From an uncultured Actinomycetota bacterium (lineage in GTDB: Bacteria; Actinomycetota; Actinomycetes; JACCUZ01), in the NCBI GenBank assembly GCA_963697675.1, contig CAVOOW010000006.1, positions 1,203,518-1,267,517 on the forward strand: DNA of 64,000 nucleotides. The letters run 5' to 3'. The notes beneath the pieces are model-generated. The model was not told the origin of the DNA. It saw nothing but the letters and a program-made list of their open reading frames with translations, and did not search any database. Of this stretch, positions 1,575 through 34,986 are shown piece by piece (position 1 is the stretch's first letter; each line of letters opens with the position of its first letter). A program made the position numbers and the translations under genes.

Positions 1575-1621
1575 CTCGTGACCATAACGCCGCTCGGCGG
1601 TCCCGGGACTGGAGATCTGTT

Positions 1622-9523: not shown

Positions 9524-9649
9524 CGTCCGTTTCCAAGCGTCGGACAAGGCCTTGGCTGGCTGGGCTCGACGTCATCGGTCCTACGCATTACCTCCCGTGG
9601 AGACTGACAGCAGCCGGTGCTCGGCGTACCTTCACGGCGAGGAGGAGTC

Positions 9650-11885: not shown

Positions 11886-11947
11886 TCAGGTGTCTCCTTA
11901 GATGCCGTGAGGAATCTGCGCCGGGGACGCTCAGCCCGAGCGTCGGG

Positions 11948-12498: not shown

Positions 12499-12610
12499 TG
12501 TTCATGTCCCCAAGTAAAGCCGCGCCAAACGCGCTGAGAAAGTCACTGTTGATGGGTGTACTGACAGGGCATCGCTCACCACCGGTACACGCCTCGTACT
12601 GTCGATCGAC

Positions 12611-13507: not shown

Positions 13508-13680
13508 ATGGGGCGACAAGACCCGGGCGATCGAATGTGATGTCGCCGCCGTCGCGGATATGCGGCCGACGGTGCCCGGAGCCGATACTTCCGCTGGCGG
13601 CCGTGGCGATCCGCGCCAGCGCGACAGATCTGAGGGGCGCCAGATTACCGCTCGCCGACGTGGGGCCGCTAACGCCGCGA

Positions 13681-14760
13681 TCAGTGTCGGTCGACTAACA
13701 GGACTTCGATGGCGTTGTTTCCGTAGCCCAGCCGGTTCCACGGTGGGACGTCGGGCTGTACGTTGCCGGCGGCGTCGGTCGCCCGGGCGCGCAGGGTGTG
13801 GCGTCCGACGTCGTTGCTGTCCCAGACGAACGACCAGTCCTGCCACTGGTAGGGACCCTTTGGCGGGTCCAGCTGCGCGGGGTGCCAGTCCCCTTCGCCG
13901 GTGAGGCTGATGTCGACCTGCGTGACGGGCCCGGTGCCTGACCAGGCTTTTCCACGAACCGTGTAGGGCCCGAGGGGAAGGATGGCGCCGGGAGCGGGGT
14001 CTGTGATGCGGGCACGCACGCGCATGAGGCGCACGGCCTCGTGCGGGCGATCCGGCCACTGGTAGATGTAGTGGCCGGTCTGGAACTCGCCGGTGTAGGC
14101 CTCGGTCAGCACGTCGATCCGCCTCAGCCACTTCACCGAGGCGACGGCATACCAGTGGGGCACGATGAGCCGGAACGGGGCGCCGTGATCGGGCCTGAGC
14201 GGTTCGCCGTTCATCTCGTAGGCGATCAGGATGGCCGATGACGGATCGCTTGCTTCGGAAAGCGGCAACGCGCGGACGAAGGTGAGGTCGTTCTGATTGG
14301 TCTCCGGGAGGATCGCCTGAAGGTGGTACGAGCCGTGATCGGCACCTTCGAACCGGACGTCAACACCCTGGGTCGCTGGCTGCGCTAGCGCGAGTACGTC
14401 GCTCAGCAGGGCGCCGGTCCAACGTGCCGTCGACACGGCGTAGTCGCCCCACGGTTCCCCGGTCGGAAGCGGTCTCATGTCCAGGCGTCCGTTGCCTGCA
14501 CACTCCAGCGTGACCGCCTCATCGTTGGCCGGCAGCGCGCGCAGGTCATCGAGGGTGAGGGTCGTGGGGTTGCCCACGGCACCGCCGATTTCCAAGGTGC
14601 CGTCGTGCGTGGGCAACGCGAAGTTGCTGCGGACGTAGTGAAAGTCGGTGGGGGTGATGTCCCCGACCAGGGCTTGGGGCGGTGCCTCGGCGTTGTAGGG
14701 GGCGGGATTGATCATCTCTAGTGCGGCGCGTGCCGACTCCAGATCGCCTGCGACGGTCAT
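13681..14760 (-). CDS. sulfite-oxidase-family molybdopterin oxidoreductase
   Basis: Oxidoreductase molybdopterin-binding domain plus Mo-cofactor dimerisation domain (HYVRSNF...LECAGNGR...PFRLIVPHWYAVASVKWLRRI). Start is the ATG at 14760; the longer ORF upstream is an antisense artefact. Confidence 0.75.
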   Translation of the reverse strand: MTVAGDLESARAALEMINPAPYNAEAPPQALVGDITPTDFHYVRSNFALPTHDGTLEIGGAVGNPTTLTLDDLRALPANDEAVTLECAGNGRLDMRPLPTGEPWGDYAVSTARWTGALLSDVLALAQPATQGVDVRFEGADHGSYHLQAILPETNQNDLTFVRALPLSEASDPSSAILIAYEMNGEPLRPDHGAPFRLIVPHWYAVASVKWLRRIDVLTEAYTGEFQTGHYIYQWPDRPHEAVRLMRVRARITDPAPGAILPLGPYTVRGKAWSGTGPVTQVDISLTGEGDWHPAQLDPPKGPYQWQDWSFVWDSNDVGRHTLRARATDAAGNVQPDVPPWNRLGYGNNAIEVLLVDRH

Positions 14761-14819
14761 GGGCGCTGTCTTCCTCTCGATTGATCGTGGTGTTGATCGT
14801 CGCCGCGGGCGCTGCGGCG

Positions 14820-15686
14820 TCAGAAGTCGGAATCGTCGAAGCTCGGCTCGCGGCCGTCGTTGAAGGCTCCGATTCCTTCGACGCGGTCGGGGTGGACAGC
14901 GGAGCGCCAGTGGGCGTCCATCATGATCGCGATCGCCTGCTCGATCGGTTGCCCTTCGCCGAGGTGGACGGCGCGTTTGACGGACTGCACCGCCGTTGGT
15001 GAGTTGCTGGCGATCTTGTCCGCGATGCGTCGGGCGGCGAGCATGAGCTCGCCGGGGGAGTGGATCTCGTTGACCATGCCGAGGCGGTAGGCCTCCTGCG
15101 CCGGAACTGGGTCGCCGGTCATGAGCATCTGCAGGGCCTTGCCGCGGGGCAGCAGACGCGGCAGCAGAGCCGGTGAGCCGCCGCCGGCAGCCAGGCCGAG
15201 CATGGCTTCGGGTTGGCCGAACGTCGCGGTCTCGGAGGCGATGATGAAGTCGGTGCTCTGAGCCAGCTCGCAACCGCCGCCGTAGGCGATGCCGTTGACC
15301 GCAGCGAAGATCGGCTTGCGCAGCTGTCGCACGGTGTAGAGGGTGCGGTCGAAGGCCTGGCGCTGTCGCAGCCAGTCCTCCTTGGTCATGCTCTTGCGCT
15401 GTCGCAGGTCGCTGCCGACGGAGAAGGCCCGGTCGCCGGCTCCGGTCAGGACCACGACCCGAACGGCGGTGCGCACCGCGATCGTCTCCACGACCTCGGT
15501 CAGCAGGGCGCCCATCTCCGTGGTGATCGCGTTGTCGGCATGCGGTCGGTTGAGCGTGACCACCGCAACCTGGCCGCCCGCGAGGTAGTCGAGGAGTACG
15601 GGAGCCTCGGTCTCGACGACATCTTGAGGGGGCGGTCCGAAATCGAGGGCCGCCCATCGGTCCGTGCCGGATGAGCTCATCGCCAC
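14820..15686 (-). CDS. enoyl-CoA hydratase/isomerase family protein
   Basis: Crotonase-fold motifs (VVLTGAGDRAFSVGSDL, AAVNGIAYGGGCELAQSTDF). Confidence 0.8.
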   Translation of the reverse strand: MAMSSSGTDRWAALDFGPPPQDVVETEAPVLLDYLAGGQVAVVTLNRPHADNAITTEMGALLTEVVETIAVRTAVRVVVLTGAGDRAFSVGSDLRQRKSMTKEDWLRQRQAFDRTLYTVRQLRKPIFAAVNGIAYGGGCELAQSTDFIIASETATFGQPEAMLGLAAGGGSPALLPRLLPRGKALQMLMTGDPVPAQEAYRLGMVNEIHSPGELMLAARRIADKIASNSPTAVQSVKRAVHLGEGQPIEQAIAIMMDAHWRSAVHPDRVEGIGAFNDGREPSFDDSDF

Positions 15687-15714
15687 GCCTTCCTCTCACT
15701 TCGCTGCCGACCGT

Positions 15715-17055
15715 TCATGTGTCCAGCTCCGCTAGCCAGCGCAAGGCCTTCAGACCAGGCGCGAAGAAGTACTCCCCGCCCCGCGTCACCACGAACGGAG
15801 GCAGGTGCTGCAGCCTGCGTCGGATCGGGCGCTGGGGAATCGTGAAACCGCCGGACTCGTCGTTCGGCCCGACGAGGGGGTCCTTCTCGAGTGGGGCACC
15901 GATGAAGATGCCGTCGTTGAGCCACTGAGTCTTGACGAACTCGAACTGTCGCTTGAGATGCGCCCCGGCGAACACGAAGACGATCCCTCGGTCGGCGCCG
16001 TCGTCGTCGAGTGCACCCTGGGGCAGCATGGGCCCGTAGCTCGTTCCACGCCGGATCATGCGGTGCAGCCTGACGTCCACGCTGCCGACCTCGTCCATGG
16101 CGTCACGTGGGTTGGCGCGCCGCGCATGGGCACCCACGGGGCACTTGAACCCGCGCGGGTCATCAGCGAAGACGAAGTCGTTGTTCCGCTGCGCGTCGGC
16201 ACCGAGATCGGGGTCATCGTGCTCGGGTGCGAGGGCGAGCGGGGCCCCGCTCTGCCAGCGCCCGACCATCTTCGCGCCGAGCAGATCCTCCTCGTCTCGG
16301 CTTGCCGCCCGGTCGCGCAGGTAGCCGCGGTAGGCCGCCACCTTCGTGTGCAGCTTCCGCAAGACGACGTACGTGCCGTTACGACCCAGAACCTCCGGCG
16401 TCGGCATGGGAGGCAGCTCACCGGTCTCATCCGGGTAGCCCAGGATGATCTCACCGGCCTTGAGGGGCTGCTCCCGCGGACTCCTGGAGGGCCTACCGCT
16501 TCCTTCGACCGCAGGCTGGCCGATGCCGTCCTTGAAACCGAAGGAGGTCCGTCCAGTGGCAAGCTGGTAGCAGTCCTGGCGCCAGATCACCTCCACCCCC
16601 GGCAGCTCACGATGGGCCTCCCGCGCCCTTTCTGCGGCAGCGTGAAGCCGAGCAGCGTCAGAGGAGAGGACCGCGATGGCCACGTGAACGTCGGCACTGC
16701 CGAGCGGTGCCTCCCAGCGTTCCGGGGCGCTGGCTCCCACGTCGCCGAGCAGGCCGGCGCGCGCCGCCATTCCTTCACGGAACTCGGGGGCGAAGCTCTC
16801 CAGTGACGTTTGCGGGACCCCGAGCGCCTCGAGGCCGTGGTAGGTGAACCCCACGGTGACCGACGTGTCGTCGCTGCCATGAGACGCCCGTGAAGTGCTG
16901 GCGATCCGATGCAAACTCCGGACGAGCTCGCGGCCATCGGTCCGATCCGCGATGCGCAACAACAGGTACCTGCCGACGTAAGGCGAGGGACGCTCGAACA
17001 GCGCACCAGCCTGGATGTCGTCGAGCTCAAGGTGGGGAACGGTCGCCTCGGTCAT
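15715..17055 (-). CDS. Dyp-type peroxidase
   Basis: FGFKDGIGQP motif with a GxxDG heme pocket; ATG at 17055 preceded by GGAGG. Confidence 0.75.
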   Translation of the reverse strand: MTEATVPHLELDDIQAGALFERPSPYVGRYLLLRIADRTDGRELVRSLHRIASTSRASHGSDDTSVTVGFTYHGLEALGVPQTSLESFAPEFREGMAARAGLLGDVGASAPERWEAPLGSADVHVAIAVLSSDAARLHAAAERAREAHRELPGVEVIWRQDCYQLATGRTSFGFKDGIGQPAVEGSGRPSRSPREQPLKAGEIILGYPDETGELPPMPTPEVLGRNGTYVVLRKLHTKVAAYRGYLRDRAASRDEEDLLGAKMVGRWQSGAPLALAPEHDDPDLGADAQRNNDFVFADDPRGFKCPVGAHARRANPRDAMDEVGSVDVRLHRMIRRGTSYGPMLPQGALDDDGADRGIVFVFAGAHLKRQFEFVKTQWLNDGIFIGAPLEKDPLVGPNDESGGFTIPQRPIRRRLQHLPPFVVTRGGEYFFAPGLKALRWLAELDT

Positions 17056-17077
17056 GGCCTCCGTGTGCCTTCCGTCG

Positions 17078-18208
17078 CTAGTGGTGCTCAGGGGGCTCGG
17101 GCGGGTGCGGGTTGGGCGCCGCCAGGTACGGGAACGTGTCCGTGGCCGGCCGGGTAGCGGAGTCGACGCCATCCCGGATCGTGGGGCCATGTCCAGAGTT
17201 GACGAGCTGGGTGAAGATCGTGTCCATGACGTCGTCGTTCAAGGCCCGTCCTCCGCACGTCTGGTGCGGGTGACCGCGGCGGGCCGCGAGCTCGATCTCG
17301 AGGAACGAGCCTCGTTCGAGATAGGGCTTTGTGACGTCGACGACGAGGAAGTCGGCGAGGACCAGGTCCGTCAACGGATGGTTGCCGTTCTCGTCCGTGG
17401 GCCAGTCCACGTTTCCGTCCAGGCCGTCCCAGAAGGCAAGGTTGGCGTTCAGACGCGCGCGGTAGGCACCCTCATAGGCGTCGCCGAGGTGGAACGCGTC
17501 CTCCATGTTGTACAGGTCGCGGATCTCCAGGTCCCGGTTCACCGGGTCGAACTCCTTCGGCGCGAGCATCATGTTCTTCACCTCGGGTCTGCCGACGCGC
17601 TCGATCCGAACATTGAGCTTCCCTCGCGTGAGCGTCTCGGCGACGACACCCACGAGGCTGGCGCCACCAAGGAGCCGTGAGTCCATCTCGATGACGACAC
17701 TCAGCACGTTCTTGCCGTCCAGGAAGATCGAGCCGGGGTCGGTGAACGCCAGCTCGTGGGTCGCGAGCGTCGTCAGGGCCGCACGTGCATCCATGATGAA
17801 CGGGTCCCACCGGGTGCCGGCGAAGACGCGCATGTGGGCACCGGCACCGCCCCGCGCGTCGTTCACGCGGAACGAGACCGGCTCTCCGGTCGGGGAGGTG
17901 CAAGTGCCTTCCTGGACAGGCACGCCGGCCACGGGATTCGGAGCGGAGAAGACGCAGTCGAGGACGTACTCCTCGTCGCCGGGGACGAACTGCCACGCAT
18001 GACCGTCCGTCGGCGGTCGGCTGAGTGGTCGCAGCCGGAAGCGGTACAGGAGCCCCTCCGAGAACAGGTCGGAGGGCTTGGCCATCGGAAGCGTGTTCAC
18101 GACAAGCACGAGACGATCCGCCTGCTCAGGGCTCGGGAACGCATACACGTCAGTGATGTCCGCGATCGGGTCGGCGAGGGCGCGCGGCCCTGAGATGTGG
18201 TCCGACAT
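17078..18208 (-). CDS. DUF4331-like hypothetical protein
   Basis: N-terminus MSDHISGPRALADPIADITDVYAFPSP recalled as DUF4331-family. Lies 22 nt upstream of the DyP gene, suggesting an operon. Confidence 0.5.
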   Translation of the reverse strand: MSDHISGPRALADPIADITDVYAFPSPEQADRLVLVVNTLPMAKPSDLFSEGLLYRFRLRPLSRPPTDGHAWQFVPGDEEYVLDCVFSAPNPVAGVPVQEGTCTSPTGEPVSFRVNDARGGAGAHMRVFAGTRWDPFIMDARAALTTLATHELAFTDPGSIFLDGKNVLSVVIEMDSRLLGGASLVGVVAETLTRGKLNVRIERVGRPEVKNMMLAPKEFDPVNRDLEIRDLYNMEDAFHLGDAYEGAYRARLNANLAFWDGLDGNVDWPTDENGNHPLTDLVLADFLVVDVTKPYLERGSFLEIELAARRGHPHQTCGGRALNDDVMDTIFTQLVNSGHGPTIRDGVDSATRPATDTFPYLAAPNPHPPEPPEHH

Positions 18209-18238
18209 CGGACGTGCTCCCTGTCCCTACCACCCGTC

Positions 18239-18787
18239 CTAGTCGCCGGCCTCGTCGAGCAGCGGCCGCATCGCTGGATGCTCGAGGAGCTCGGCGGCCG
18301 CTGGATGGTCGAGAACCTGCTGGAACGCCGCGTTCACGCGTTGGGCCTTTCGGATCTCCAGGACCGTGCCGCCGTAGTTCCGGGCGTATGCGCCTGCCGT
18401 CTGCTCGGCGTCCAGGATGAACTTCTTGAGGGCGGCCAGGTCCGGCAGCCCGTCATAGCCGTTCACGTGGCGGAAGATGACGTCGAACAGGGCGAGAGTC
18501 GCCCCGGAGGAGAAGAAGTCCTCCATGTACGCATCCCAGGGGCCGTCGAAGCTGGTGATGAACGCGAGACGGGTGTCCTCGTCGAAGAGGATGAAGCGCG
18601 CCTCGTGAATCGTCTGGACGGCCATCCCGTAGTCGCCGGGCCGGTAACCAGGAGTGTCCTGCAGGTCCTGGAGCGCGCTCCGCAGCGACGGTCCCTGACC
18701 GGGCTTCACATGGAAGAACAAGCTGAACTCGCTGGTGGGACCGACGCTCAACCCCGGGTGAGACGATCCCGACACGGACCCGACCAT
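18239..18787 (-). CDS. hypothetical protein (first gene of the minus-strand operon)
   Basis: 182 aa from the ATG at 18787, with GGAGG 5 nt upstream; no recognisable motif. Confidence 0.45.
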   Translation of the reverse strand: MVGSVSGSSHPGLSVGPTSEFSLFFHVKPGQGPSLRSALQDLQDTPGYRPGDYGMAVQTIHEARFILFDEDTRLAFITSFDGPWDAYMEDFFSSGATLALFDVIFRHVNGYDGLPDLAALKKFILDAEQTAGAYARNYGGTVLEIRKAQRVNAAFQQVLDHPAAAELLEHPAMRPLLDEAGD

Positions 18788-19044
18788 CGGTGCCTCCAAG
18801 GGGATTAGTGAACGCGCCGCCTGAACGGGGGGCGTGCCCGAACGAGTCCGCTTGCCGGTTCCGGAACGCGCTCTAAGCGGAACGAAACCTATGCTCCGCC
18901 GAACCGCCGCACCTCATCCGCTCCGGGTGAAGCAAGTCCACACGGTCAGCCGCGTGGGCCGACACATAAGCGCGATTCAGGGTTGTGACCTGCGGCAATA
19001 GGCGAAAATGCAGGCCATCCGAGGGTGGAGACGACCCCCATGGA

Positions 19045-19076
19045 GGGGCCGTCATCAGGTGCGGGATGACGGCCCC
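19045..19076. terminator. 12-bp perfect GC-rich hairpin (GGGGCCGTCATC...GATGACGGCCCC) followed by TTGCTTGG
   Basis: Inverted repeat read directly from sequence. It lies just 3' of the phosphoesterase gene stop. Confidence 0.5.
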
Positions 19077-19091
19077 TTGCTTGGGATGAGA

Positions 19092-20843
19092 TCAGGGGGT
19101 CTTGATGCCGGCCGCTCTCAGTGCGTGGCGCAGGTCGTGCACCCGAGCGTCCCGGTGGTAGGTCGCATCCAATGGCTTGAGGTGGTAGGTCCTCTCGATG
19201 GTGGCCAGGATCGATGTTGTGTCGTATGACGTGCTGTCGACCGCTGAGTGCTTCAGCGAGCGGGCGATGACCAGTGCCGGTATGCGCGTGCTGGGTCCGT
19301 ACACGTCATGCGGACCGGGCGTTGCCAGCTTGCCCTGTCCGGGGGGCCGCACGTGGTCCCATTGCCCGCCGAACTCGTCGTAGGTCACAACCACAAGTGT
19401 GTTGCGCGCTTGCGGGCCGTTCTCGATCGCCTTCAGCAGGTCGACGAGGTGGGCCTCGCCATTCTCGGTGCTGGCGTAGCCGGGGTGCTCGTTCTCTGCT
19501 CCGTAAGGCTTGACGAATGACACGGAAGGAAGCGCGCCGTTTTGGGCTGCCGCGAGGAAGGCTTGCTCATCTTGTAGGTGTGCCCTGCCGGGTTGGCCTT
19601 CGCCGAAGTTCGCGAAATAGTTGAGCGGCTGGTGGTGGAACTGGAACAGGTTGCCGGCGCAGTACGGGTAGGTGTCGCTGGCCTTGTGGTCAGGGTCGGT
19701 GCAGGTGCCGGGTGTGCTGCCATTGGTCCAGCCAGGGCCGGCGACGTTGCCGGCCGCGTTGTCCCAGCCGCCGGAGTACCAGTTCCACGAGACGCCCTTG
19801 GCGCTGAGCTCGTCACCGATGTTCGGATAGACGGCGTCGTCGATGGCTGGCAGTCGCTTGGCGTCCGCCGTGCCTGGGGAGTAGGGCTGGCTGAACGGCT
19901 GAACGGTGTTCACCGCGACGTCCCCGCAGGCGCGGCCACCCGTCGTACCGAAGACAACCGTCGGGTCGGGACAAGCCTGAGTCAGCGCGTTGTCGGCAGG
20001 TGTCGGGTTGGCATACAGCGGTGTCGCGGCAGGCATGCCGTTCGCGTCCAGGACCGAGTGTGCCTGCGCCGCGGCGGTCCAACCTGTCCATACCGGCGCG
20101 CGTGCGGCGACGAGGAACTGGTGGTTGAGGAACGACCCGCCGAAAGCTCCCTGGAAGAAGTGGTCGGCAACGACGTACTTGGGTGCGCCCGGGCCGTGCA
20201 GGTACTCATAGACCGGCAGGCCCTTGGTGTCGTAGTAGCCCTGCGTCAGGCCAGCAGCGTCGCTGCCAAGCGTGTAGCGGTCCATCCGCCCACCGTCGAG
20301 CTGGAACTGCTCGTTGTAGAAGCGGTGCACGATGTCTCGGGTGCAACCGCCGGGGAGTGCTCCGGGCGAGTCCTTGAGCACACCATTGGCCGCGAAGACG
20401 TTGGCTGGCGGGCAGGTCTTGTCCTCTGGCGCGATGTAGGCGTTGATGTTGAACGGTGAGTTCGTGAAGTGCGAATCCGCGGTGGTGCCGTCGGTCTTCG
20501 TCACCGTGCCGCAGTCGCCGGGCAGCGGGGGCGACGTGAGGTTGACGTCCAGCTGAAGAAGACAGCCGAAGGGCGCCCCGTTGGCGTCCACCTGCGTGCT
20601 GCGGGCAGCGTAGCCGTGGCTGCCGATGCCATTGACGGACTTGCCGTTGACCTTGCCCCAACCACCGAAGAGGTTGTCAAAGCTGTGGTTCTCCTCGTAG
20701 ATGACCACGAGATGCTTGAAATGCCCCATCGCCGATGGTCCGGGCTTGGCCCTCGGCACCGCGCTGGCTGGTCCGCTGGTCAGGCCGAGTGCCGTGCTGG
20801 CCGTAACTGCGGCGACCGCCGTCACCGCGAGAATGCGTCGCAT
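19092..20843 (-). CDS. secreted phosphoesterase family protein (phospholipase C / acid phosphatase-like)
   Basis: Signal peptide MRRILAVTAVAAVTASTALG; VIYEENHSFDNLFGGW motif; GGGAGGA SD before the ATG at 20843. Confidence 0.7.
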   Translation of the reverse strand: MRRILAVTAVAAVTASTALGLTSGPASAVPRAKPGPSAMGHFKHLVVIYEENHSFDNLFGGWGKVNGKSVNGIGSHGYAARSTQVDANGAPFGCLLQLDVNLTSPPLPGDCGTVTKTDGTTADSHFTNSPFNINAYIAPEDKTCPPANVFAANGVLKDSPGALPGGCTRDIVHRFYNEQFQLDGGRMDRYTLGSDAAGLTQGYYDTKGLPVYEYLHGPGAPKYVVADHFFQGAFGGSFLNHQFLVAARAPVWTGWTAAAQAHSVLDANGMPAATPLYANPTPADNALTQACPDPTVVFGTTGGRACGDVAVNTVQPFSQPYSPGTADAKRLPAIDDAVYPNIGDELSAKGVSWNWYSGGWDNAAGNVAGPGWTNGSTPGTCTDPDHKASDTYPYCAGNLFQFHHQPLNYFANFGEGQPGRAHLQDEQAFLAAAQNGALPSVSFVKPYGAENEHPGYASTENGEAHLVDLLKAIENGPQARNTLVVVTYDEFGGQWDHVRPPGQGKLATPGPHDVYGPSTRIPALVIARSLKHSAVDSTSYDTTSILATIERTYHLKPLDATYHRDARVHDLRHALRAAGIKTP

Positions 20844-21169
20844 GTCATTCCTCCCGTGATGTGAGTACCGGTGGGTCGTTCGCGACGCTAGCCATCGATT
20901 AGCCGAATGGGAACGCACAAAAACGACAACTCCGTGAACGGTGGGCGACACGTTCGCCGACCAGTCGGGACGCCGCGGGCGACCACATCGCCCGATCAGC
21001 GGCGACGTCGCCGCTCCCGCGCCCACGCCGAGATACCAAGATCAACACCCCCGTTCGGCGTCGTCTGCCGACCTATGCGGAGGGAGATGCGTGGATCATG
21101 TTCCGGCCGGGCCAACGCGAGTAGCGTTCGCGCGTCAGAGCTGTCAGCCGTGGGCGGAGGGCGGGCGGA

Positions 21170-23145: not shown

Positions 23146-23149
<4 letters not shown>
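22652..23149 (-). CDS. DUF3566 membrane protein (Rv0007-like)
   Basis: Pro/Ala-rich N-terminus then two transmembrane segments. Sits between gyrA and the tRNAs. Confidence 0.65.
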
Positions 23150-25731
<2,582 letters not shown>

Positions 25732-25789
25732 AGGTGCTGTCTCCTTGCAGTGCGGGTACGGCGTCGCGCGCGGGCGTCGACTGCCTGGT

Positions 25790-27886
25790 CTAGATGTCGA
25801 GGAATCGGACGTCCTTGGCGTTGCGCTGGATGAACTTGCGCCGTGACTCGACGTCCTCGCCCATCAGCGTCGTGAACATCTCGTCGGCCTGGGCAGCGTC
25901 TTCGAGGGTGACCTGCAGCAGGATGCGACGCTCCGGATCCATCGTGGTCTCCCACAGCTCGTCGTTGTTCATCTCGCCGAGACCCTTGTAGCGCTGGACG
26001 CCGTCGTCCTTGGACATCTTGCGGCCCGCCTCGAGGCCGGCCGCCGTGAGCACGTCGCGCTCGCGGTCGGAGTAGGCGTATTCCGGCCTCGCCGGTCGCG
26101 ACCACTTCAGCTTGTAGAGCGGTGGCTGCGCGAGGAACACGAAGCCCTGCTCGACGACCGGGCGCATGTAGCGGAACAGCAATGTCAGCAACAGGGTGCG
26201 GATGTGCTGACCGTCGACGTCAGCGTCGGCCATCAGGACGACCTTGTGATAGCGCAGCCGGTTGATGTCGAACTCGTCGCCGTTGATGCCGGTGCCCAGC
26301 GCCGAGATGATGGCCTGCACTTCTTGGTTCTGCAGGACGCGGTCGATGCGCGCGCGCTCGACGTTGAGGATCTTCCCGCGGATCGGCAGGATCGCCTGCG
26401 TCTTCTGGTCGCGGCCCTGCTTGGCCGGGCCACCAGCCGAGTCACCCTCGACGATGAACAGCTCGCACTCTTCGGGGTTGGTCGACTGGCAGTCGGCGAG
26501 CTTGCCCGGCAGGCTGCCGCCGCCGAGCAGACCCTTGCGGCTGCGGGCCGCGTCGCGGGCCTTGCGTGCAGCAAGTCGTGCGAAGCCGGCGCTCTGCGCC
26601 TTGCGGGCAATCTCCTTGCCCTCGCTCGGGTTCTTCTCGAACCACTCGCCGAGGCGGTCGTTGACCACCTTCTGCACGAAGGACTTCGTGTCGGTGTTGC
26701 CGAGCTTGGTCTTGGTCTGGCCCTCGAACTGCGGGTCCGCGAGCTTGACGCTGACGATCGCGACCAGGCCCTCACGGACGTCGTCGCCGGTGAGGTTCGC
26801 GTCCTTCTCCTTGAGGATGCCCCAGTCGCGGGCGAACTTGTTGATCAATGTCGTGAGCGCCGCGCGGAAGCCCTCTTCGTGCGTCCCGCCCTCGTGGGTG
26901 TTGATCGTGTTGGCGAACGTGTGGACGGACTCGGTGAAGCCGCTGTTCCACTGCATGGCGACGTCGAGCGACATGCCGCCGTCGATGTAAGCGGACTCCG
27001 CCTCGAACGACACGACAGTGCGGTGCACGGCCTCTTTGCGCGCGCCGAGGTAGTTGACGTAGTCGACGAGGCCGCCGTCATAGCGGTAGACCACCTCGGT
27101 CTGCGTCGTCTCCTCGATCTCGTCGGCGTCGCTCTCCTCCGTCGAGGCGGCGCGCTCGTCCTTCAGAACGATAGTGAGGCCCTTGTTCAGGAAGGCCATC
27201 TCGCGCAGCCTCGTCGACAGGGTCTCGAAGCTGTAGTCGGTCGTCTCGAAGATGTCGCCGTCTGCCCAGAAGGTGATCTCGGTCCCGGTGTCGTCGACCG
27301 GACCGCCCTTCGCGAGCGGGGCATCTGGCACGCCGTGGCTGTAGGACTGCGTCCACAGGTGGCCCTCGGTCCGGATCGCGACGTCGAGCTTGGATGACAG
27401 CGCGTTCACGACGGAGACGCCGACGCCGTGCAAGCCACCGGAGACCTTGTAGCCGCCGCCGCCGAACTTGCCGCCGGCGTGCAGCACGGTCAGCACGACC
27501 TCGACCGCTGGGCGTCCCTCGCTCTCGACGATCCCGACGGGGATGCCACGGCCGTTGTCGCGCACCCGGACGCCGCCGTCGGCAAGGATCGTGATCTCGA
27601 TGCGGTCGCAGTGCCCGGCCAGAGCCTCGTCGACCGAGTTGTCGACGACCTCGGTGACAAGGTGGTGCAGGCCGCGCTCGCCGGTGGAGCCGATGTACAT
27701 GCCGGGGCGCTTGCGGACGGCCTCGAGGCCCTCGAGGACCTGGATCGCGCTGGCGTCGTAGGTCGGCGAGTCGTCGCCCATGCGCGAACCCATCAGCGCG
27801 TCCGGAGCAGGCAACTCGACGGGGGTGAGAGGCGGCGACTCCTGTGGATCGGTCTGCTGCTCAACTGGCTCGGCAGGCTGGGACAC
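25790..27886 (-). CDS. gyrB: DNA gyrase subunit B
   Basis: 698 aa; GHKL ATPase, Toprim (EGDSAGG) and [10 protein letters not shown] motifs. Confidence 0.95.
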
Positions 27887-28138
27887 AGGTCACCTTTCCT
27901 CGTGGTGCGCAGCAGTCGAGACCCGCGTTCGGGGGTCTGGGGGCGGCTGTTCGCGCCAAGGTCGCATCGGGGTGCGAACTAGCCTCCATCCTACCTGTCC
28001 GGGAGCCCTGGAACGGCCATCAGGGCCCTCTGGGGACAACGGAGCCGTGCGAATACGGGTAGGGGTGACCCTCCCCACGCGGGAGCACCGCTCACGAGGC
28101 TCTCCGGCCGTCCGCCGCCCGACGCGGCAAGTCGGCGG

Positions 28139-28777
28139 TCACCCGTACGTGTCGCGAGGCCCACGGCCCTTGATCCGGAGCGCGCCACGCTTCCAGGACG
28201 GCGCGGAAGGGCCCAAAACGGTCACCTTGTGGACGGTGCCCTCGCCCAGCTCGGCTGCGAGCTGGCGAACCAGGGTCGGAGCGAGCATCCGCAGCTGGGT
28301 GGCCCAGGCGGTGGTGGCGGCGGCGACGACCAGCTCACCGTCCGCGAAGGACACCGGGGAGCTGTGCTCGGCGATCTGCGGTCCCACGATGGCCGGCCAA
28401 CGGCCCATCGCGCCCCCGACGGCAGCGTCGGTCTCCCACCCGCGGTCGGCGACGAGCCGGTCGAGGGAGGACTCGAGCAGCTGCGGGTCACGGTCGTCCG
28501 GGTGGGCGCCGCTGCGGGCGGAGGTGTCGGCGCGGCGGCGGCGACGGGGGTTCTCGGCGGCGCCGTCGGGACCACTCGCCGCGCTTCGGCCGGCGGCACC
28601 GCCGGCCCGCGTGTCCAAGCCCCGTCGCTTGGCTTCGGCCTTCGCCGCAGCGAGTGCGCCACGGGCGACCTCGATGCCGCTCCGCCCGCCGGTGCTCACG
28701 GCGGCGGACTTCCGCGGACCTGACCCGGCCTCCTTCGCGGCAGGGTCGTCTCCAGCACGGAGCTGCTCGTCGGTCAC
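28139..28777 (-). CDS. DUF721 (DciA-like) protein
   Basis: Conserved recF-gyrB intergenic gene of actinobacteria; C-terminus ...[13 protein letters not shown]...[22 protein letters not shown]. Confidence 0.7.
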
Positions 28778-29910
28778 CGCACCCGCCGTACCTCTCCACC
28801 CATGACATCCACGCGAGCGCCCGCGAGCGCCTCAGGGACATCGTCGGGCACGGCCGCGGTGACGAGCACCTGCTCGGCCCCGGCCACCAGCCCGGCCAGG
28901 CGCTCGCGGCGCTGCGAGTCGAGCTCGGCGAACACGTCATCGAGGATCAGGACGGGTTCGCCGTCGTCATCGGTGTCGCTGCTCAGCAGGTCGTAGGCCG
29001 CCAGCCGCAGCGCCAGCGCGAACGACCACGACTCCCCGTGGCTGGCGTAGCCCTTGGCCGGCATCGGTCCCAGCTTGAGCAGCAGGTCGTCTCGGTGCGG
29101 GCCGACCAGCGAGACGCCGCGCTCGAGCTCGTTCTTTCGCAGCTCGGAGATCGCATTGAGCAGCGCCCCGGACAGCATGTCCCGGTCGGCGACCAGCGGC
29201 ACACCGTCACCCAGCGAGCACCGGTACTCCAGGGCCGCTGGACCGCCCGAGTCGGCGACCGCGTCATAGGCCTTGTCCACCAGCGGGCGCAGCGCGTCGA
29301 CCAGCTCGATCCGCGCGGCCAGCAGCTCGGCCCCCGTGGTCGCCAGGTTCGAGTCCCACACCTCGAGCGTGCGCAGGTCGCCCTTGCCGGCGCGGATGCT
29401 CGCTCCGGCCGACTTGAGCAACGCGTTGCGTTGCCGCAGCACCCGGTCGTAGTCGGCGCGGACGCCGGCCAGCCGCGGCGTACGTACGACAAGAAGGTCG
29501 TCGAGGAACCGGCGCCGCTCGCTCGGGTCGCCCTTGACCATCGCCAGGTCCTCGGGGGCGAACAGCACGGTGCGCAGGATGCCCAGCACATCTCGGGGCC
29601 GTGGCACGGGCGAGCGGTTGACCCGCGCCCGGTTGGCCTTGCCGGGGGAGATCTCGACCTCGACGAGCATGGCCCTCGTTCCCCGCGTCACGTTTCCGCG
29701 GACCACCGCCCGCTCCGCATTCAGGCGTACGAGCGGCGCGTCTGCGGCCACCCGGTGCGAGCTCAGCGTCGCGAGATAGCCGACGGCCTCGACGAGATTG
29801 GTCTTGCCCTGTCCGTTCGGCCCGACCAGCGCTGTGACGCCGGGATCGAGGGGCAGCTCGACCTCGGTGTAGGACCGGAAGTCGCGCAGCGACAGATGAG
29901 TCAGGCGCAT
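28774..29910 (-). CDS. recF: DNA replication/repair protein RecF
   Basis: Walker [14 protein letters not shown]; ABC signature. Confidence 0.9.
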
Positions 29911-29953
29911 GTGGTCGGGCGGCCGCCGGTGCTCGGAGCGCTCCTTGGGGGGC

Positions 29954-30856
29954 TCATGCCGGGCTCTCGACCTCGCCCTTCGCGACCTTGGTCACCGCGT
30001 GCCCGCCGAACTGGTTGCGCAGCGCCGCGACGGCTTTCATCGCCGGCGAGTCGTCCTGCCGGGACGTGAACCGGGCGTAGAGAGCGGCGGTCATGACCGG
30101 CGCCGGCACGGCGTGGTTGATGGCCTCCTCGATCGTCCACCGCCCCTCGCCCGAGTCCTCGACGTAGCCACGGATGTCGGCCAGCTTGGGATCGGCCTCG
30201 AGGGCCAGGACGAGCAGGTCGAGCAGCCACGACCGGATGACGGTGCCCTGGGTCCAGGACTTGATGACCCCGGGCACGTCCTGCACGACGTCGGCGGCCT
30301 CGAGCAGCTCGAAGCCTTCCGCGTAGGCCTGCATGAGGCCGTACTCGATGCCGTTGTGCACCATCTTGGCGAAGTGGCCGGCACCGACTGGTCCGGCATG
30401 CACGAACCCCGAGTCGCCCTCGGGCTTGAGCGCATCGAAGATCGGTTGCACTGCCGCGACGTGCTCGGGCTCGCCACCCACCATGAGCGCGTAGCCGTTC
30501 TTGAGTCCCCACACTCCGCCGGACACACCTGCGTCCACGTAGCCGATGCCCATCGTGGCGAGGTGCGCGGAGTGGAGCTTGTCGTCGGTGAACCGTGAGT
30601 TGCCGCCGTCGACGACGATGTCGCCCGCGGCGAGCAACTCGCCGAGGTCGTGGACGGTGGCGCGGGTCGGCTCACCTGACGGGACCATCACCCACACGAC
30701 CCGCGGTGCCTCGAGCTGGGCCACCATGTCCTCGAGCGACGACGAATCGCTGACGTCAGGATTGCGGTCGTAGCCAACGACGGTGTGCCCGGCCTCGCGC
30801 AACCGCTCGCGCATGTTGCCGCCCATCTTGCCCAACCCGATGAGACCCAGCTTCAT
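29954..30856 (-). CDS. gnd: 6-phosphogluconate dehydrogenase (decarboxylating)-like, short form
   Basis: [18 protein letters not shown]-binding motif; 300 aa. Lies between dnaN and recF as in Streptomyces-type origins. Confidence 0.75.
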
Positions 30857-30922
30857 AGGTGTCGCCTCCCTGGCTACGCGAAAATATCCCTTACTCCTAA
30901 AGGGTTTTTCCCCACATCTTCC

Positions 30923-32065
30923 TCAGCCTGAAAGTCGCACCGGCATGAGGAGGTATCGGTAGTCGTCGCCGGCAACGGCATCGGCGTCGGCCTTGCCGGC
31001 CAGCACCGCGGGTCTGGTCGGCACCGTGAACCGCAGCTCGGCATGCGCGGTCGCGAGCGCCCCGAGCCCGTCGAGCAGGTAACCCGGGTTGAAGGCGATC
31101 GAGATGTCGTCACCCTCGAGCCGGGCGTCGAGGGACTCGGATGCCTGAGCCTCGTCACCGGTGCCGGCCTCCAGGGTCAGCTCCCCAGCGGCAAAGCTCA
31201 GCCGGATCGGGGTGTTGCGTTCGGCCACCAGAGCGACACGGCGCACCGACTCGATGAGCGCGTCGGTCTCGACGGTGGCGACGCCCTGCGACTCGGCGGG
31301 AAGCAACGAGCGGTATTTGGGGAACTCGCCGTCGAGCAACCGTGACGTCGTGCGCCGCCCGGCGCCCTCGAAGCCCACCAGCCCCTCGCCCGCTCCACCG
31401 GTGGCGGAGGCCAGCGCGAGGGTCACCTTGTCGGCGCTGGCGAGCGACTTCGCGGTCTCGGACAGGGTGCGCGCAGGCACGAGAGCGACGACCGACAGGC
31501 CGGTCTGCTCGGGAGTCCAGGCAAGGTCACGAACCGCCAGGCGATAGCGGTCGGTGGCCGCCATGGTGATCTTCTCGCCCTCGATCTCCAGCCGGACACC
31601 CGTCAGCACGGGAAGCGTGTCGTCGCGACCGGCCGCGATCGACACCTGGGCGACCGCGGCCGCGAAGGCATCACCGCGCAGGGACCCCGACGCGCCCGGC
31701 ATCGCCGGCAGGGCCGGGTAGTCCTCGACAGGCAGCGTGAGCAGCGTGAACCGTGAGCTGCCGCAGGTCAGGACCACCTTGGACGCATCGGTGGCGACGT
31801 CGACGGGGCGGTCGGGCAGGCTGCGGGAGATGTCGGCGAGCAGCCGGCCGCTGACCAGCGCGACACCGGGTTCGCCGATGTCGGCAGCGATCTCGACCCT
31901 GGCCGAGACCTCGTAGTCGAAGCTGGACAGCACGAGGCCACCACCGCTCTCGCGGGCGTCGAGCATCAGACCGGCGAGCACGGGCACCGGGGGTCGGGCC
32001 GGCAGGCTGCGCGCGGCCCACGCCACGGCGTCTGCAAGAACGTCTCGCTCCACCCGGAACTTCAC
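30923..32065 (-). CDS. dnaN: DNA polymerase III beta sliding clamp
   Basis: 380 aa; position and MKFRVERDVLADAVAWAAR N-terminus. Confidence 0.9.
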   Translation of the reverse strand: MKFRVERDVLADAVAWAARSLPARPPVPVLAGLMLDARESGGGLVLSSFDYEVSARVEIAADIGEPGVALVSGRLLADISRSLPDRPVDVATDASKVVLTCGSSRFTLLTLPVEDYPALPAMPGASGSLRGDAFAAAVAQVSIAAGRDDTLPVLTGVRLEIEGEKITMAATDRYRLAVRDLAWTPEQTGLSVVALVPARTLSETAKSLASADKVTLALASATGGAGEGLVGFEGAGRRTTSRLLDGEFPKYRSLLPAESQGVATVETDALIESVRRVALVAERNTPIRLSFAAGELTLEAGTGDEAQASESLDARLEGDDISIAFNPGYLLDGLGALATAHAELRFTVPTRPAVLAGKADADAVAGDDYRYLLMPVRLSG

Positions 32066-32482
32066 CGGTCACCGCCTCCTGCGTTGTCGTGCGCGATCTC
32101 GTGCTGGTCAGTGCTGCGGTTGCTGGCCCTGCGGTCGGTCATCCCCAGGTCGGCTGGAGCTGACTTGGAAGATTGATCTAACTCCATAGATAGCTGTAGT
32201 GGTCTTACTAGGTGCGGTGCATGGTGGGGATATCCCACGTTCGCCCTGCTCAGACCGTAGTCCAGGGTGGGGACAGACTGGGGACGGCGGTGGGCACGGA
32301 CCCCGTGCTCCTGGGGACGACGCGGTCCGTCCACTGCGATCCACAGGGCCGCACACCGGTTGGGCCCCGATTTCCACAGGCTTGTCCCCAAGGTGTGAAC
32401 GCAGGTCCCGGCGTGGTCAGCCCGCACGGGCTGATTTCCCCGCCCGTGATCAGCCCGGACGGGCTGATTTCTCCGCCCGTGA
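32066..32482. promoter_or_regulatory. candidate oriC (dnaA-dnaN intergenic) with degenerate DnaA boxes and an AT-rich unwinding stretch
   Basis: TTGTCCCCA (32382-32390), TTTCCACAG (32371-32379), GATCCACAG (32338-32346), GGGATATCCC. An unusually AT-rich segment at ~32160-32225 in a 70% GC background. Confidence 0.55.
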
Positions 32483-32497
32483 TCAGCCCGCACGGGC
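32415..32497. repeat. 33-bp tandem repeat x2.5, each unit holding a CAGCCCG-N3-CGGGCTG hairpin; overlaps the dnaA stop
   Basis: Units 32415-32447, 32448-32480 and 32481-32497 (partial) read directly from sequence. Confidence 0.8.
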
Positions 32498-34009
32498 CTG
32501 GGACTTGATGCGGTTGGTGAGCTCGGTGACCTGGTTGTAGACGCTGCGGCGCTCGGCCATCAGCTGGCGGATCTTCTTGTCGGCGTGCATGACCGTCGTG
32601 TGGTCGCGACCGCCGAACTGCTGTCCGATCTTGGGCAGCGACAGGTCGGTGAGCTCACGGCAGAGGTACATCGCGATCTGCCGGGCATTGACGAGTACGC
32701 GCGAGCGCGACGTGCCGCAGAGCTCCTCCATGGACTGGCCGAAGTAGGCCGAGGTCTGCGCCATGATCGTCGCCGAGGTGATCTCGGGCTGGCTGCTGTC
32801 CGGGATGAGGTCCTTCAGGACGATTTCAGCCAGCGCCAGGTCGACGCCCTGGCGGTTGAGGCTGGCGAAGGCGGTGACCCGGATGAGGGCGCCCTCGAGC
32901 TCACGGATGTTCGTCGAGATCTTGCTCGCGATGAACTCGAGCACCTCGGGGGGTGCGGCCAGCCGCTCCTGCGCGGCCTTCTTGCGCAGGATGGCGATGC
33001 GCGTCTCGAGCTCCGGCGGCTGAACGTCGGTGATCAGACCCCAGTGGAACCGGTTGCGCAGCCGGTCTTCCAGGGTGACCAACTGCTGGGGAGGTCGGTC
33101 ACTGGAGATCACGATCTGCTTGTTGGCGTTGTGCAGCGTGTTGAACGTGTGGAAGAACTCCTCCTGGGTCTGTTCCTTGTTCTCCAGGAACTGGATGTCG
33201 TCGACGAGCAGGATGTCGACGTCGCGGTAACGCCGGCGGAAGCCTTCGGCGCGGCCGTCGCGGATGGAGTTGATGAAGTCGTTGGTGAACTCCTCGGAGC
33301 TCACATAGCGCACCCGGACCCCGGCATAGAGACTCATGCCGTAGTGCCCGATCGCGTGCAGCAGGTGGGTCTTGCCCAACCCGGAGTCGCCATAGATGAA
33401 CAGCGGGTTGTAGGCCTTGGCCGGCGCTTCGGCGACCGCGACGGCGGCGGCGTGGGCGAACCGGTTGCTGGACCCGATGACGAACGTCTCGAACAGATAG
33501 CGCGGGTTGAGCCGGGTGGGCTCGCTCTCCCGCCGAGATCCGGGCTCGCGGCCGGTGCCGGCCACCACGGTCTCCTCGTGGCGGTCGTCGCCGCGGCGGA
33601 TGTCCTCGAGTCGTCCCTGGTCTGGCCCGCCGTCGTCGGGTTGGGCGCGTGCCGTGCTCGGCTGCCGGCCATGGTCGGCTCCGTCGCCGAGCGCGCGGCT
33701 GCTCTCGTTGTCGGCATCGGTGCTGGTGTCCAGGCTGGGATCGACCACGACCGCCAGCCGGATGTCCTGGCTGAGCTGCTCGGCGAGCACGGCGGTGATC
33801 ACCCCGCGCAGCCGTGACTCGATGATGTCCTTGGCGAACTCGTTGGGCACCGCGAGCAGGGCGGTGTCGTTGACGACCGCATCGAGTCGGCTGAGCCGGA
33901 TGAAGGCCAGGTTCTGGCTGGGCAGCGATCCGCCGAGCGATTCGAGGCAGCGCGTCCACACCTCCCGCAGCTCGTCTCCGGTGGGGGCGCCACCATCCGC
34001 GATCGTCAT
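32483..34009 (-). CDS. dnaA: chromosomal replication initiator DnaA
   Basis: Walker [17 protein letters not shown]-terminal HTH. The ATG at 34009 gives 508 aa; the 678-aa ORF extension was rejected. Confidence 0.9.
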
Positions 34010-34344
34010 GGGGGCGATTTCCTCCAATTCCGTGACACCGTTGTTTGTCACGGTTTCCACCCTCTCGTGCGTTCTGGCCGTGTCGGCCGTCTGATCGAGC
34101 GGGTCCGGATCACCGTCGGTGACAGCCAAATCGCCCCTGGGTAACGCTCCAATTTGTCCGCGATGTCCCACTCCGACCTTCCCCGTCCACATGGTCATCC
34201 ACAGCCTGTGTACACAGGTGCCCTGAGGCCGGTCACGAGTCAACGCGGCGCTGCCCGGAGGGCAGCGGATCGTGCACGGCTCGGGTAGGGAAGTCGCCCG
34301 ACGACGGGCGACGCTAACAACCCGGTGGGCCGGGCAGCAAGCGG

Positions 34345-34353
34345 TTGTCCACA
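34345..34353 (+). promoter_or_regulatory. perfect DnaA box TTGTCCACA upstream of dnaA
   Basis: Exact Streptomyces-type consensus. A second box TTGTCCACT is at 34615-34623. Confidence 0.5.
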
Positions 34354-34843
34354 ACGCGCAGGACATTTTTTGTCGGGTCGGGCGTGTCGCGTCACGGCAT
34401 CGCCGGCGGCCCGGCAAACTGAACGGTTGACCCATCGGTGATTCCCGGGCCGTGCGGGCCCTGGGGACACCTGGGCGGGTGTGATCGCGTTTCCGGGCAC
34501 CGGGCGACCCGGCTCGCATCGCGCTGCCCTGCCGGTTTGACCGCTCCTACCGCCGCCCCGTACCGTGGCTCGGTCGAGTCGCCGACGGCTCGATGCTGCG
34601 TGCCTGCATCCAGGTTGTCCACTGTGCGCGAGACAGTGAACGGTTTCGCACGGGTGCGGGGAAAGTTGTGGCTTCCAAGGCTCGGATCGCCCGCGGCCGC
34701 TGATGTTCGCCGAGCAGCCGTTAACCAGTTCGTCGCCAGGCGCGGCACAATGTCTGAGCATCGAGTTTCTGACGGCAACTGCCGGAAGCACGCAACGCCC
34801 GAACGACCGTAAGCCCGTAGTACCCAATGCCAGGAGCCTCCGA

Positions 34844-34981: not shown

Positions 34982-34986
34982 GCGAC

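Follow-up and report, generated by a model that had tools for sequence, protein, structure and literature searches.

The 64,000-nucleotide (nt) stretch of DNA analyzed in this work, referred to throughout as the window, belongs to contig CAVOOW010000006.1 of an uncultured Actinomycetota bacterium and has a GC content of 66-73%. Between positions 13681 and 18787 of its minus strand lies a cassette of five genes, here termed g1 to g5, which brings together a small protein of an unnamed family, a DUF4331 protein, a haem peroxidase of the DyP family, a crotonase and a molybdenum (Mo) enzyme of the sulfite oxidase (SO) family. The reading frames of all five genes are intact (aa, amino acids):

18787..18239, minus strand: g1, 182 aa, ATG start, unnamed family
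18208..17078, minus strand: g2, 376 aa, predicted cytoplasmic DUF4331 protein
17055..15715, minus strand: g3, 446 aa, class V (C-type) DyP haem peroxidase
15686 (GTG start, 288 aa) or 15680 (ATG start, 286 aa)..14820, minus strand: g4, crotonase / enoyl-CoA hydratase family
14760..13681, minus strand: g5, 359 aa, sulfite-oxidase (SUOX)-family molybdoenzyme

A preliminary description of this locus had proposed a five-gene minus-strand operon in which gaps of 22-59 nt separate genes that are each preceded by a Shine-Dalgarno (SD) sequence, and our analysis of the window agrees with it on these points. From g1 to g5 the gaps measure 30, 22, 28-34 and 59 nt, and purine-rich SD sequences are found at every gene (GGAGG, GGGAG, GGAGG, GAGAGGAAGG and GAGAGGAAG, respectively), with the GGAGG of g1 located 6 nt before its ATG. 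A consensus scan of positions 13300-19200 for the internal signals that would argue against an operon returned neither a sigma-70-like promoter nor an intrinsic terminator, a result that constitutes weak evidence in an actinobacterium of ~68% GC. The shared strand, the short gaps, the order kept among relatives and the failure to find internal signals thus support the prediction that g1, DUF4331, DyP, crotonase and sulfite oxidase form one transcription unit.

The family assignments made earlier also hold up in profile searches. The g2 product matches PF14224 (99.7 bits, gathering score 27), and its homologues are annotated as DUF4331 family; g3 matches TIGR01413 (121.1 bits, cut-off 100.5), while Pfam detects only DyP_N (31.5 bits); g4 matches PF00378 (ECH_1, 181 bits) and g5 matches both PF00174 (Oxidored_molyb, 160.8 bits) and PF03404 (Mo-co_dimer, 46.7 bits). 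As stated in the preliminary description, the DUF4331 and 182-aa proteins are uncharacterized: g1 falls in no Pfam or NCBIfam family, and phmmer and hmmsearch against the PDB returned nothing significant for g1 and no solved relative for g2. Every family in the cassette except that of g1 is already named, and the cassette and its g1-DyP partnership are apparently undescribed. Searches of the literature turned up nothing on the cassette, the g1 family or the pairing of g1 with DyP, no publication on DUF4331 and no report combining DyP, sulfite oxidase and enoyl-CoA hydratase, in keeping with the earlier remark that the five activities do not compose a textbook pathway; a paper on Frankia treats an EfeB-type DyP and SorA separately.

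The cassette is conserved well beyond the window. A one-genome-per-species scan produced 194 relatives, from which 80 loci were kept with 10-kb flanks; g1 homologues number more than 3000, and among the matches listed all are at least 79% identical. The 80 loci belong to Nocardioides, Kribbella, Leifsonia, Arthrobacter, Jiangella, Actinomycetospora, Angustibacter, Solirubrobacter and other Thermoleophilia, Acidimicrobiia and many soil metagenome-assembled genomes (MAGs). A loss of synteny in relatives had been put forward as grounds for abandoning the operon; instead, tblastn with the five window proteins recovers g1-g2-g3-g4-g5 in order, on one strand and over no more than 6 kb, in 73 of these loci. 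Median protein identities from g1 to g5 are 81, 76, 79, 87 and 78%, making g4 the best-conserved gene of the cassette, and the median gaps are 26, 21, 24 and 41 nt. Of the seven exceptions, two have a truncated locus or contig (L025, L057), one is missing a g5 match (L014), two are rearranged so that DUF4331 is displaced and g1 remains beside DyP (L015, L058), and the last two (L010 and L072) are partial copies that share contig DATFGA010000006.1. Clustering of all flanking open reading frames (ORFs) in the 80 loci revealed no further conserved neighbour family, the commonest being a PLDc_N/SHOCT small membrane protein (21/80) and a LAL regulator (11/80), and the phosphoesterase encoded upstream in the window is absent from all 80. 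Since the flanks are not conserved while the five genes are kept, the cassette is a self-contained unit amid variable surroundings. For metabolic enzymes, 75-87% identity from one actinobacterial class to another is unusually high and suggests strong constraint, lateral spread or both.

Some loci stand out in this survey. An Acidobacteria MAG (L004) and a Chloroflexi MAG (L069) carry cassettes with 73-93% protein identity to that of the window, reflecting either lateral transfer or mis-binned actinobacterial contigs. In L010 with L072, in L031 and in a Streptomyces locus (L088, g1 at 5282 and 11917), the cassette or g1 is present twice, in full or in part, within ~10-15 kb, which suggests duplication, recombination or MAG mis-assembly.

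Outside the actinobacterial cassette, the conserved association narrows to DyP and g1. In annotated records of Rhodococcus koreensis, Sphingomonas, Brucella anthropi, Ketogulonicigenium, Microvirga, Methylorubrum and Bradyrhizobium, a g1-like 'hypothetical protein' is encoded immediately upstream of a ~460-aa DyP, and these g1-paired DyPs are orthologues of g3 (42-64% identity). Distant g1 homologues on plasmids and chromids show 26-38% identity. Two tblastn searches were cross-tabulated over plasmid-borne records, D. radiodurans among them: of the 44 records with a DyP at least 41% identical to g3, 38 also encode a g1 homologue in the same orientation, in most cases 5-200 nt upstream, compared with none of the 16 records with more distant DyPs, and 38 of the 39 g1-bearing records carry a DyP of the g3 clade. 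One of the six apparent exceptions, from Nostoc, has a 183-aa upstream ORF that belongs to the g1 family (hhalign, 99.5% probability). The pairing is also present in Streptomyces, Kitasatospora, many Alphaproteobacteria, Acinetobacter and Deinococcus, and the core is found in at least five phyla, including Actinomycetota, Pseudomonadota, Deinococcota and Cyanobacteriota.

The company kept by this core varies among lineages. In Streptomyces the order is g1-DyP-DUF4331, and in Bradyrhizobium g1-g1'-DyP-DUF4331. In Sinorhizobium it is g1-DyP-NIPSNAP-g1'-DUF4331-TPR followed by genes for cytochrome c, 2Fe-2S and Mo-hydroxylase subunits, the whole set between two hemA copies; a gene of the HupE/UreJ Ni/Co permease family also flanks this cluster. 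Rhizobium shows DyP-DUF4331 followed by an acetoacetate-decarboxylase-family protein and a short-chain dehydrogenase/reductase (SDR). D. radiodurans presents a TetR regulator, a 3-hydroxyacyl-CoA dehydrogenase, a g1-like gene, its own DyP (DrDyP) and a catalase-family protein. Acyl-CoA and lipid enzymes neighbour the core repeatedly, with a 3-hydroxyacyl-CoA dehydrogenase in Deinococcus and Brucella, a thioesterase and a patatin in Sphingomonas, an oleate hydratase in Brucella and the decarboxylase-family protein plus SDR of Rhizobium. The comparison thus shows the conserved association to be that of DyP with g1, joined by DUF4331 or a catalase-like protein, with the crotonase and the sulfite oxidase as actinobacterial additions. 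The pairing of DyP with a Mo enzyme and a crotonase that drew attention to this locus is therefore real, but limited to the actinobacterial cassette, and the deeper link lies elsewhere.

Where DUF4331 is absent, a divergent 'catalase family protein' of 330-385 aa lies beside the g1-DyP pair (L081-L086 and L091, on plasmids or chromids of Rhodococcus, Sphingomonas, Brucella, Ketogulonicigenium, Microvirga, Methylorubrum and Deinococcus). These proteins score below the cut-off of Pfam Catalase (22.5 bits) or do not match it at all, display a distal ..AHAKSH.. motif and may represent an alternative third component. The downstream ORF in Nostoc is unrelated to the Deinococcus catalase-family protein.

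The closest solved relatives of g3 are 8RE3 and 8RE2, matched over the full length (E = 9e-118), followed by fungal D-type enzymes (1e-38 to 1e-45), DyP2 and AnaPX (1e-22) and EfeB/YcdB (5e-3), placing g3 closer to class C/D structures than to those of classes A and B. Alignment to DrDyP shows the catalytic motifs of this predicted peroxidase to be intact: GXXDG (FGFKDG, D176), the proximal H310 (GAHARRANPRD) and the distal R335/R336 (RRGTSYG) are all invariant in the clade. Structures 8RE2 and 8RE3 are those of DrDyP from Deinococcus radiodurans, which has been assigned to the 'unexplored class C' (class V); the purified enzyme by itself is inactive at pH 7.5, with its haem six-coordinate and low-spin (PMC10820274).

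The partner protein, g1, belongs to a family with 1053 cluster representatives (clusters at 50% identity) in an exhaustive profile search, and comparison of 29 diverse members with Pfam gave scattered sub-threshold matches only. It is predicted to consist of a ferredoxin-like body (b-a-b-b-a-b), akin to that of antibiotic biosynthesis monooxygenase (ABM) proteins, and a conserved C-terminal helical tail (AFQQVLDHPAAAELLEHPAMRPLLDEAGD). An ABM fold is probable judging from an AlphaFold2 (AF2) model that resembles ABM proteins binding polyketide-like ligands and is of low confidence (predicted local distance difference test, pLDDT, 57). Among members 30-44% identical, the last ~30 residues (AFQxVLDxPxAAxALxHPALKPLLDxAAD) are far better kept than the body; this tail has weak similarity to the STI1 DP-domain and looks like a docking element. 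Some distant relatives (P0339, P0340, P0357, P0374, P0384 and P0385) are ~400 aa long and lack the C-terminal tail, a hydrophobic linker connecting their two g1-like domains in tandem.

Within the DUF4331 alignment, H4, D17, D20, ERxGRPE and GGR are among the invariant residues. The M-S-D-H N-terminus, D17 and D20 persist between actinobacterial and rhizobial DUF4331 proteins that are only 35% identical, and the Pfam model begins at residue 2 of the Bradyrhizobium homologue (L087). Removal of the initial Met would generate an X-X-His metal site resembling the amino-terminal Cu(II)- and Ni(II)-binding (ATCUN) motif. A Foldseek search with the g2 model was uninformative. The Bradyrhizobium DUF4331 protein (L087:8592-10100) is fused to a C-terminal SRPBCC (Polyketide_cyc2) domain of the hydrophobic-ligand-binding type, and the Sinorhizobium homologue (L089:8001-9500), of 499 aa, also has a C-terminal extension.

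The two remaining enzymes resemble well-known families without falling into any of their named subfamilies. Apart from an N-terminal extension of ~35 aa, g4 aligns best in the PDB with the short-chain enoyl-CoA hydratase 5Z7R, including both catalytic Glu motifs (GGGCELA, GQPEA), and it lies below the cut-off of all 25 NCBIfam families listed, the best being EchA19 (216 bits against 400). The g5 product is composed of a Mo domain and a dimerization domain, with no haem domain, twin-arginine translocation (Tat) signal or cytochrome partner. Its best PDB matches are chicken and Arabidopsis sulfite oxidase, and also SorA, and it keeps the Mo-ligating Cys (TLECAGNGR) and the equivalents of chicken R138, R190, W204 and Y322. 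Scores against equivalog cut-offs are all far below threshold (SorA 163/600, SorT 150/570, SoxC 168/420 and MsrP 47/207 bits).

The region preceding g1 contains a candidate operator and leader:

18914..18930, minus strand: 17-bp palindrome TCACCCGGAGCGGATGA (TCAYCC-N5-GGRTGA), candidate operator, located 127 nt before the start of g1
18886..18891, minus strand: TAGGTT, -10-like hexamer (TAnnnT), 22 nt downstream of the palindrome
18788..18885, minus strand: ~100-nt leader with SD (GGAGG, 18797-18793) and partly conserved boxes

The TCAYCC-N5-GGRTGA motif occurs as a single copy in the window. Its core was found in 52 of the 81 regions upstream of g1, where shuffled sequences would give 0.45, and, allowing at most one mismatch, it lies no more than 300 nt from g1 in 56 of the 80 loci. 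RNAalifold applied to the upstream alignment detected this palindrome only, with invariant half-sites, a free loop and no covariation; because the half-sites are invariant without compensatory change, the palindrome is more in line with a protein operator than with an RNA helix. A CCTAnnGT box holds the same register in most aligned upstream regions, and the TAnnnT box is a putative promoter -10 element. No riboswitch was found, with no Rfam family detected in 13300-19300 at E <=1.

The same palindrome also appears elsewhere among relatives (L018:4574, L024:4564, L030:6174, L013:5632, L010:1327 and 19657, and others). In the fetched loci, the genes that follow it encode transport proteins (SulP permease, MFS transporter, ClC channel and Na+/H+ exchanger), a PLDc_N/SHOCT membrane protein, an arylsulfatase, and DUF2252 and ATP-grasp proteins, a distribution that points to a regulon. 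We take the half-site GGGATGAGG to resemble the E. coli MalT box. A LAL/LuxR-type (MalT-like) protein was considered as the general regulator and rejected, being found upstream of g1 in seven Nocardioides loci only and absent from the window. The leader itself, in the window and in relatives (L016, L026, L040-L042, L063, L067 and L072, at ~9900-9990), holds a putative clade-specific stem-loop, which reads GCTGGA..TCCAGC in many loci and differs in sequence in others, and it also contains a GGCTCGTTCGGGC-like box; this element could be a stabilizer of the mRNA end, a second operator or a cis-regulatory RNA.

Around the cassette, the window offers a mixed picture. Upstream, 19045-21026 holds the gene for a 644-aa phosphoesterase-family protein (phospholipase C / acid phosphatase-like) with an apparent signal sequence (21026..19092), ~300 nt from g1 and with a GC-rich hairpin at its end (~19075-19045). 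Just downstream of the cassette, the genes in 11060-13400 appear to have decayed: the coding sequence of a Zn-dependent alcohol dehydrogenase is spread over two or more frames (11060-11947, ORF 11296-12498) and that of an MmyB-like XRE regulator over three (12123-13016, 12790-13392), as either pseudogenes or assembly frameshifts. A sulfur-related gene with a rhodanese domain (9608-10033, plus strand) is located 3.6 kb past g5 and shows no conservation with the cassette, and a selenocysteine synthase (SelA) gene (1544-2719, plus strand) sits at the start of the window. Positions 22652-36637 constitute a chromosomal origin region, with the cassette ~14 kb from dnaA. This region also holds a DUF3566 gene and a 6-phosphogluconate-dehydrogenase-like gene, in addition to:

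25863..23146: gyrA
27889..25790: gyrB
29991..28774: recF
32068..30923: dnaN
34546..32483: dnaA
35501-36637: yidC

Our favoured reading, which is tentative and falls short of probable, is that the cassette encodes a cytoplasmic multi-component DyP system that H2O2 or electrons link to sulfite oxidation and that includes an acyl-CoA step. At its core, a class V DyP would work with the small ABM-like g1, joined in many lineages by a cytoplasmic DUF4331 protein. Both could serve as accessory subunits or chaperones of DyP, presenting a substrate or ligand, activating the resting low-spin haem or handling metal. The g5 enzyme would oxidize sulfite to sulfate and pass its electrons either to O2, yielding H2O2 that DyP would consume on the spot, or straight to the oxidized DyP haem. 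Sulfite might thus be detoxified without peroxide release or, equivalently, peroxide might be reduced at the expense of sulfite. The crotonase would hydrate or eliminate on an acyl-CoA acting as peroxidase co-substrate, as product or as sulfite source. One promoter guarded by the palindromic operator would drive expression, and the same putative operator fronts anion/sulfate transporters, arylsulfatase and small membrane stress proteins in relatives. The coupling of sulfite oxidase to DyP is proposed because a haem-less sulfite oxidase needs an acceptor and DyP is the only haem protein in the operon; the Mo-Cys and five of the six sulfite-pocket residues retained by g5, its lack of haem domain, cytochrome partner and signal peptide, and the presence of another Mo enzyme, the Sinorhizobium Mo-hydroxylase with 2Fe-2S and cytochrome c subunits, beside a g1-DyP-DUF4331 core speak in its favour. 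The inactivity of DrDyP alone at neutral pH fits a missing partner. What is inferred here covers physical complex formation, the coupling itself, which way the electrons flow, what the crotonase acts on and which signal is sensed. A more specific proposal, which we regard as unlikely, is that g1 and DUF4331 are obligate subunits activating a dormant class C DyP, which would make a cytoplasmic multi-component peroxidase of a new kind, and that the resulting complex takes electrons from the haem-less sulfite oxidase, acting as a sulfite-dependent peroxide reductase or, put the other way round, a peroxide-dependent sulfite oxidase.

Several observations weigh against a DyP system coupled to sulfite oxidation. 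The coupling stands on co-transcription and the absence of another acceptor, and the sulfite oxidase and crotonase are missing from most non-actinobacterial versions of the core, so that both may be a passenger pathway. In g5, the equivalent of chicken K200 is Thr and the Arg equivalent to R450 in WNLRG is displaced by one residue (WNRLG); because of these changes, its substrate may be other than sulfite. The g4 enzyme resembles an ordinary short-chain hydratase, without a sulfur-specific signature. The probable ABM fold of g1 suffers from its low pLDDT and, because no His or Cys is invariant in the family alignment, a haem-ligating role for g1 is unlikely. The notion of g1 as a detached DyP half-domain was rejected, with hhalign detecting no homology between the g1 family and the DyP clade. 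The AF2 model of g2 (pLDDT 56) is confident only in an N-terminal beta-sandwich and is uninformative on DUF4331, and the palindrome is missing in 24 of the 80 loci.

Two readings that would dissolve the system altogether, or place it in a different kind of assembly, carry very little weight. Chance adjacency of five unrelated genes, with no functional unit, might be entertained insofar as the five activities share no known pathway and literature searches produced no relevant result. Its probability is negligible: synteny rules it out, with order and strand kept across Actinomycetes, Thermoleophilia, Acidimicrobiia and the single Chloroflexi and Acidobacteria MAGs in those 73 species-level genomes, and with gaps that stay short while the flanks differ. 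Some bacterial DyPs (class P/B) are encapsulin cargo, and the preliminary description suggested looking for a targeting peptide and a shell gene. In such a reading, DyP would be packaged through its C-terminus with the other genes as co-cargo or accessory. The strikingly conserved tail of g1 could in principle be a docking peptide, but it is like STI1 DP-type helical repeats and unlike encapsulin targeting peptides. The 446-aa class V DyP ends in ...LKALRWLAELDT, without a Gly/Ser-rich SLGIGSLK-type tail. Linocin_M18 or another shell domain found no match among the part of the window ORFs that was scanned, and no shell-like gene is conserved beside any of the 80 cassettes, where the best additional family is the PLDc_N/SHOCT protein mentioned above. 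With both shell gene and targeting peptide not found, membership among encapsulin cargo was rejected and this reading is highly improbable.

Greater weight, if still well below that of the sulfite-coupled system, attaches to a role in oxidized-lipid or acyl-chain metabolism, in which the g1-DyP core, together with DUF4331 or a catalase-like mini-haem protein, would act on fatty-acyl or other hydrophobic peroxides. Here g1 and SRPBCC would bind the substrate, the crotonase would feed beta-oxidation and the sulfite oxidase would remove sulfite or supply electrons. Because acyl-CoA and lipid enzymes recur beside the core in other phyla, along with TetR regulators and the divergent 'catalase family protein', this lipid or organic-hydroperoxide role, doubtful as it is, remains the main rival, and it is the likely context of the crotonase. 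It gains from the fusion of Bradyrhizobium DUF4331 to a domain for lipids or hydrophobic ligands, from the C-terminal extension of the Sinorhizobium homologue, from the resemblance of the g1 model to proteins that bind polyketide-like ligands and from the retention of both hydratase glutamates in g4. Nonetheless, g4 is the only lipid gene belonging to the conserved actinobacterial cassette, this reading does not account for the Mo enzyme, the match of the catalase-like proteins to Pfam Catalase is marginal and no lipoxygenase or other source of hydroperoxides is linked to the core. A weaker rival, and a decidedly improbable one, is metal redox or trafficking in the manner of EfeB-EfeO, whereby DyP would oxidize Fe2+ or Mn2+ or handle haem iron, DUF4331 would bind metal through its ATCUN-like site, g1 would be a chaperone and the sulfite oxidase and crotonase would be co-regulated but functionally separate. 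Class V DyPs do include Mn-oxidizing enzymes such as DyP2, and EfeB/YcdB DyPs are genetically tied to metal-binding partners. The DyP2 structure (4G2C) is a distant match of g3, the N-terminal residues of DUF4331 and the start of its Pfam model at residue 2 agree with such a site, and the Sinorhizobium cluster has HupE/UreJ and two hemA copies at its flanks. Yet the ATCUN idea presumes Met excision and comes from inspection of the sequence, DUF4331 has no homology to EfeO or to any solved metal-binding protein, the cassette lacks a transporter, and both the near-obligate g1 partner and the acyl-CoA neighbours go unexplained.

What DyPs do physiologically, above all those of the 'unexplored' class C, is a long-standing question, and a near-exceptionless g1 partner gives it a testable explanation in the form of a missing DyP subunit or activator. 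The cassette and its recurring core point to an undescribed multi-protein peroxidase system, in which g1, with no Pfam entry, and DUF4331 gain a functional anchor and haem-less bacterial sulfite oxidases find a candidate electron or peroxide sink. If true, the redox partnership between a Mo enzyme and DyP would be previously undescribed. Since the cassette is unusually conserved and common in soil metagenome bins, it likely represents an ecologically relevant trait, which is possibly spread horizontally.

Among known systems, DrDyP (DR_A0145) is the closest solved relative of g3 (43% identity by tblastn), and its gene is directly preceded by a g1-family gene. Its operon contains a 3-hydroxyacyl-CoA dehydrogenase and a catalase-family protein instead of DUF4331, crotonase and sulfite oxidase, and native DrDyP has GXXDM where g3 has the canonical GXXDG. 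DrDyP is cytoplasmic, its physiological substrate is not known (PMC10820274), and publications on it treat the DyP alone, leaving the neighbouring genes unmentioned. The EfeUOB system likewise ties a DyP genetically to a non-haem accessory protein, and EfeB/YcdB structures are weak matches of g3; EfeB, however, belongs to class I, is exported by the Tat pathway and is linked to a permease, whereas the cassette has no transporter and neither DUF4331 nor g1 has homology to EfeO. Encapsulin-DyP nanocompartments share with the cassette a DyP with a dedicated co-encoded protein partner, but involve class P enzymes, as opposed to the class V g3, for which shell gene and targeting peptide were not found. 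With respect to ABM and dimeric alpha+beta-barrel proteins (ActVA-Orf6, IsdG/MhuD, LsrG, WhiE-ORFI), g1 has no significant sequence match and its model is of low confidence; their catalytic or haem-binding residues are not conserved in g1, which adds a helical C-terminal region of ~60 residues with an STI1-DP-like repeat.

The sulfite oxidases provide the nearest parallels for g5. SorAB, SorT-SorU and SoxCD share with it the SUOX-fold Mo domain and the dimerization domain, and are likewise genetically coupled to a haem protein, which takes the electrons; these systems are periplasmic (Tat-exported) and rely on c-type cytochromes, whereas g5 has neither signal peptide nor cytochrome c partner. 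Arabidopsis sulfite oxidase (PDB 1OGP) is among the closest matches of g5 (E = 1e-39) and has the same two-domain haem-less layout, so that g5 appears to be a plant-type haem-less architecture in the bacterial cytoplasm. The plant enzyme uses O2 as acceptor and makes H2O2. It is peroxisomal and operates alongside catalase, whereas g5 would reside in the bacterial cytoplasm with DyP and its reactivity towards O2 is putative. In the plant system, the H2O2 produced by the haem-less sulfite oxidase is scavenged by catalase, a haem enzyme (PMC3365070), and it is this same logic that we propose for g5 and DyP.

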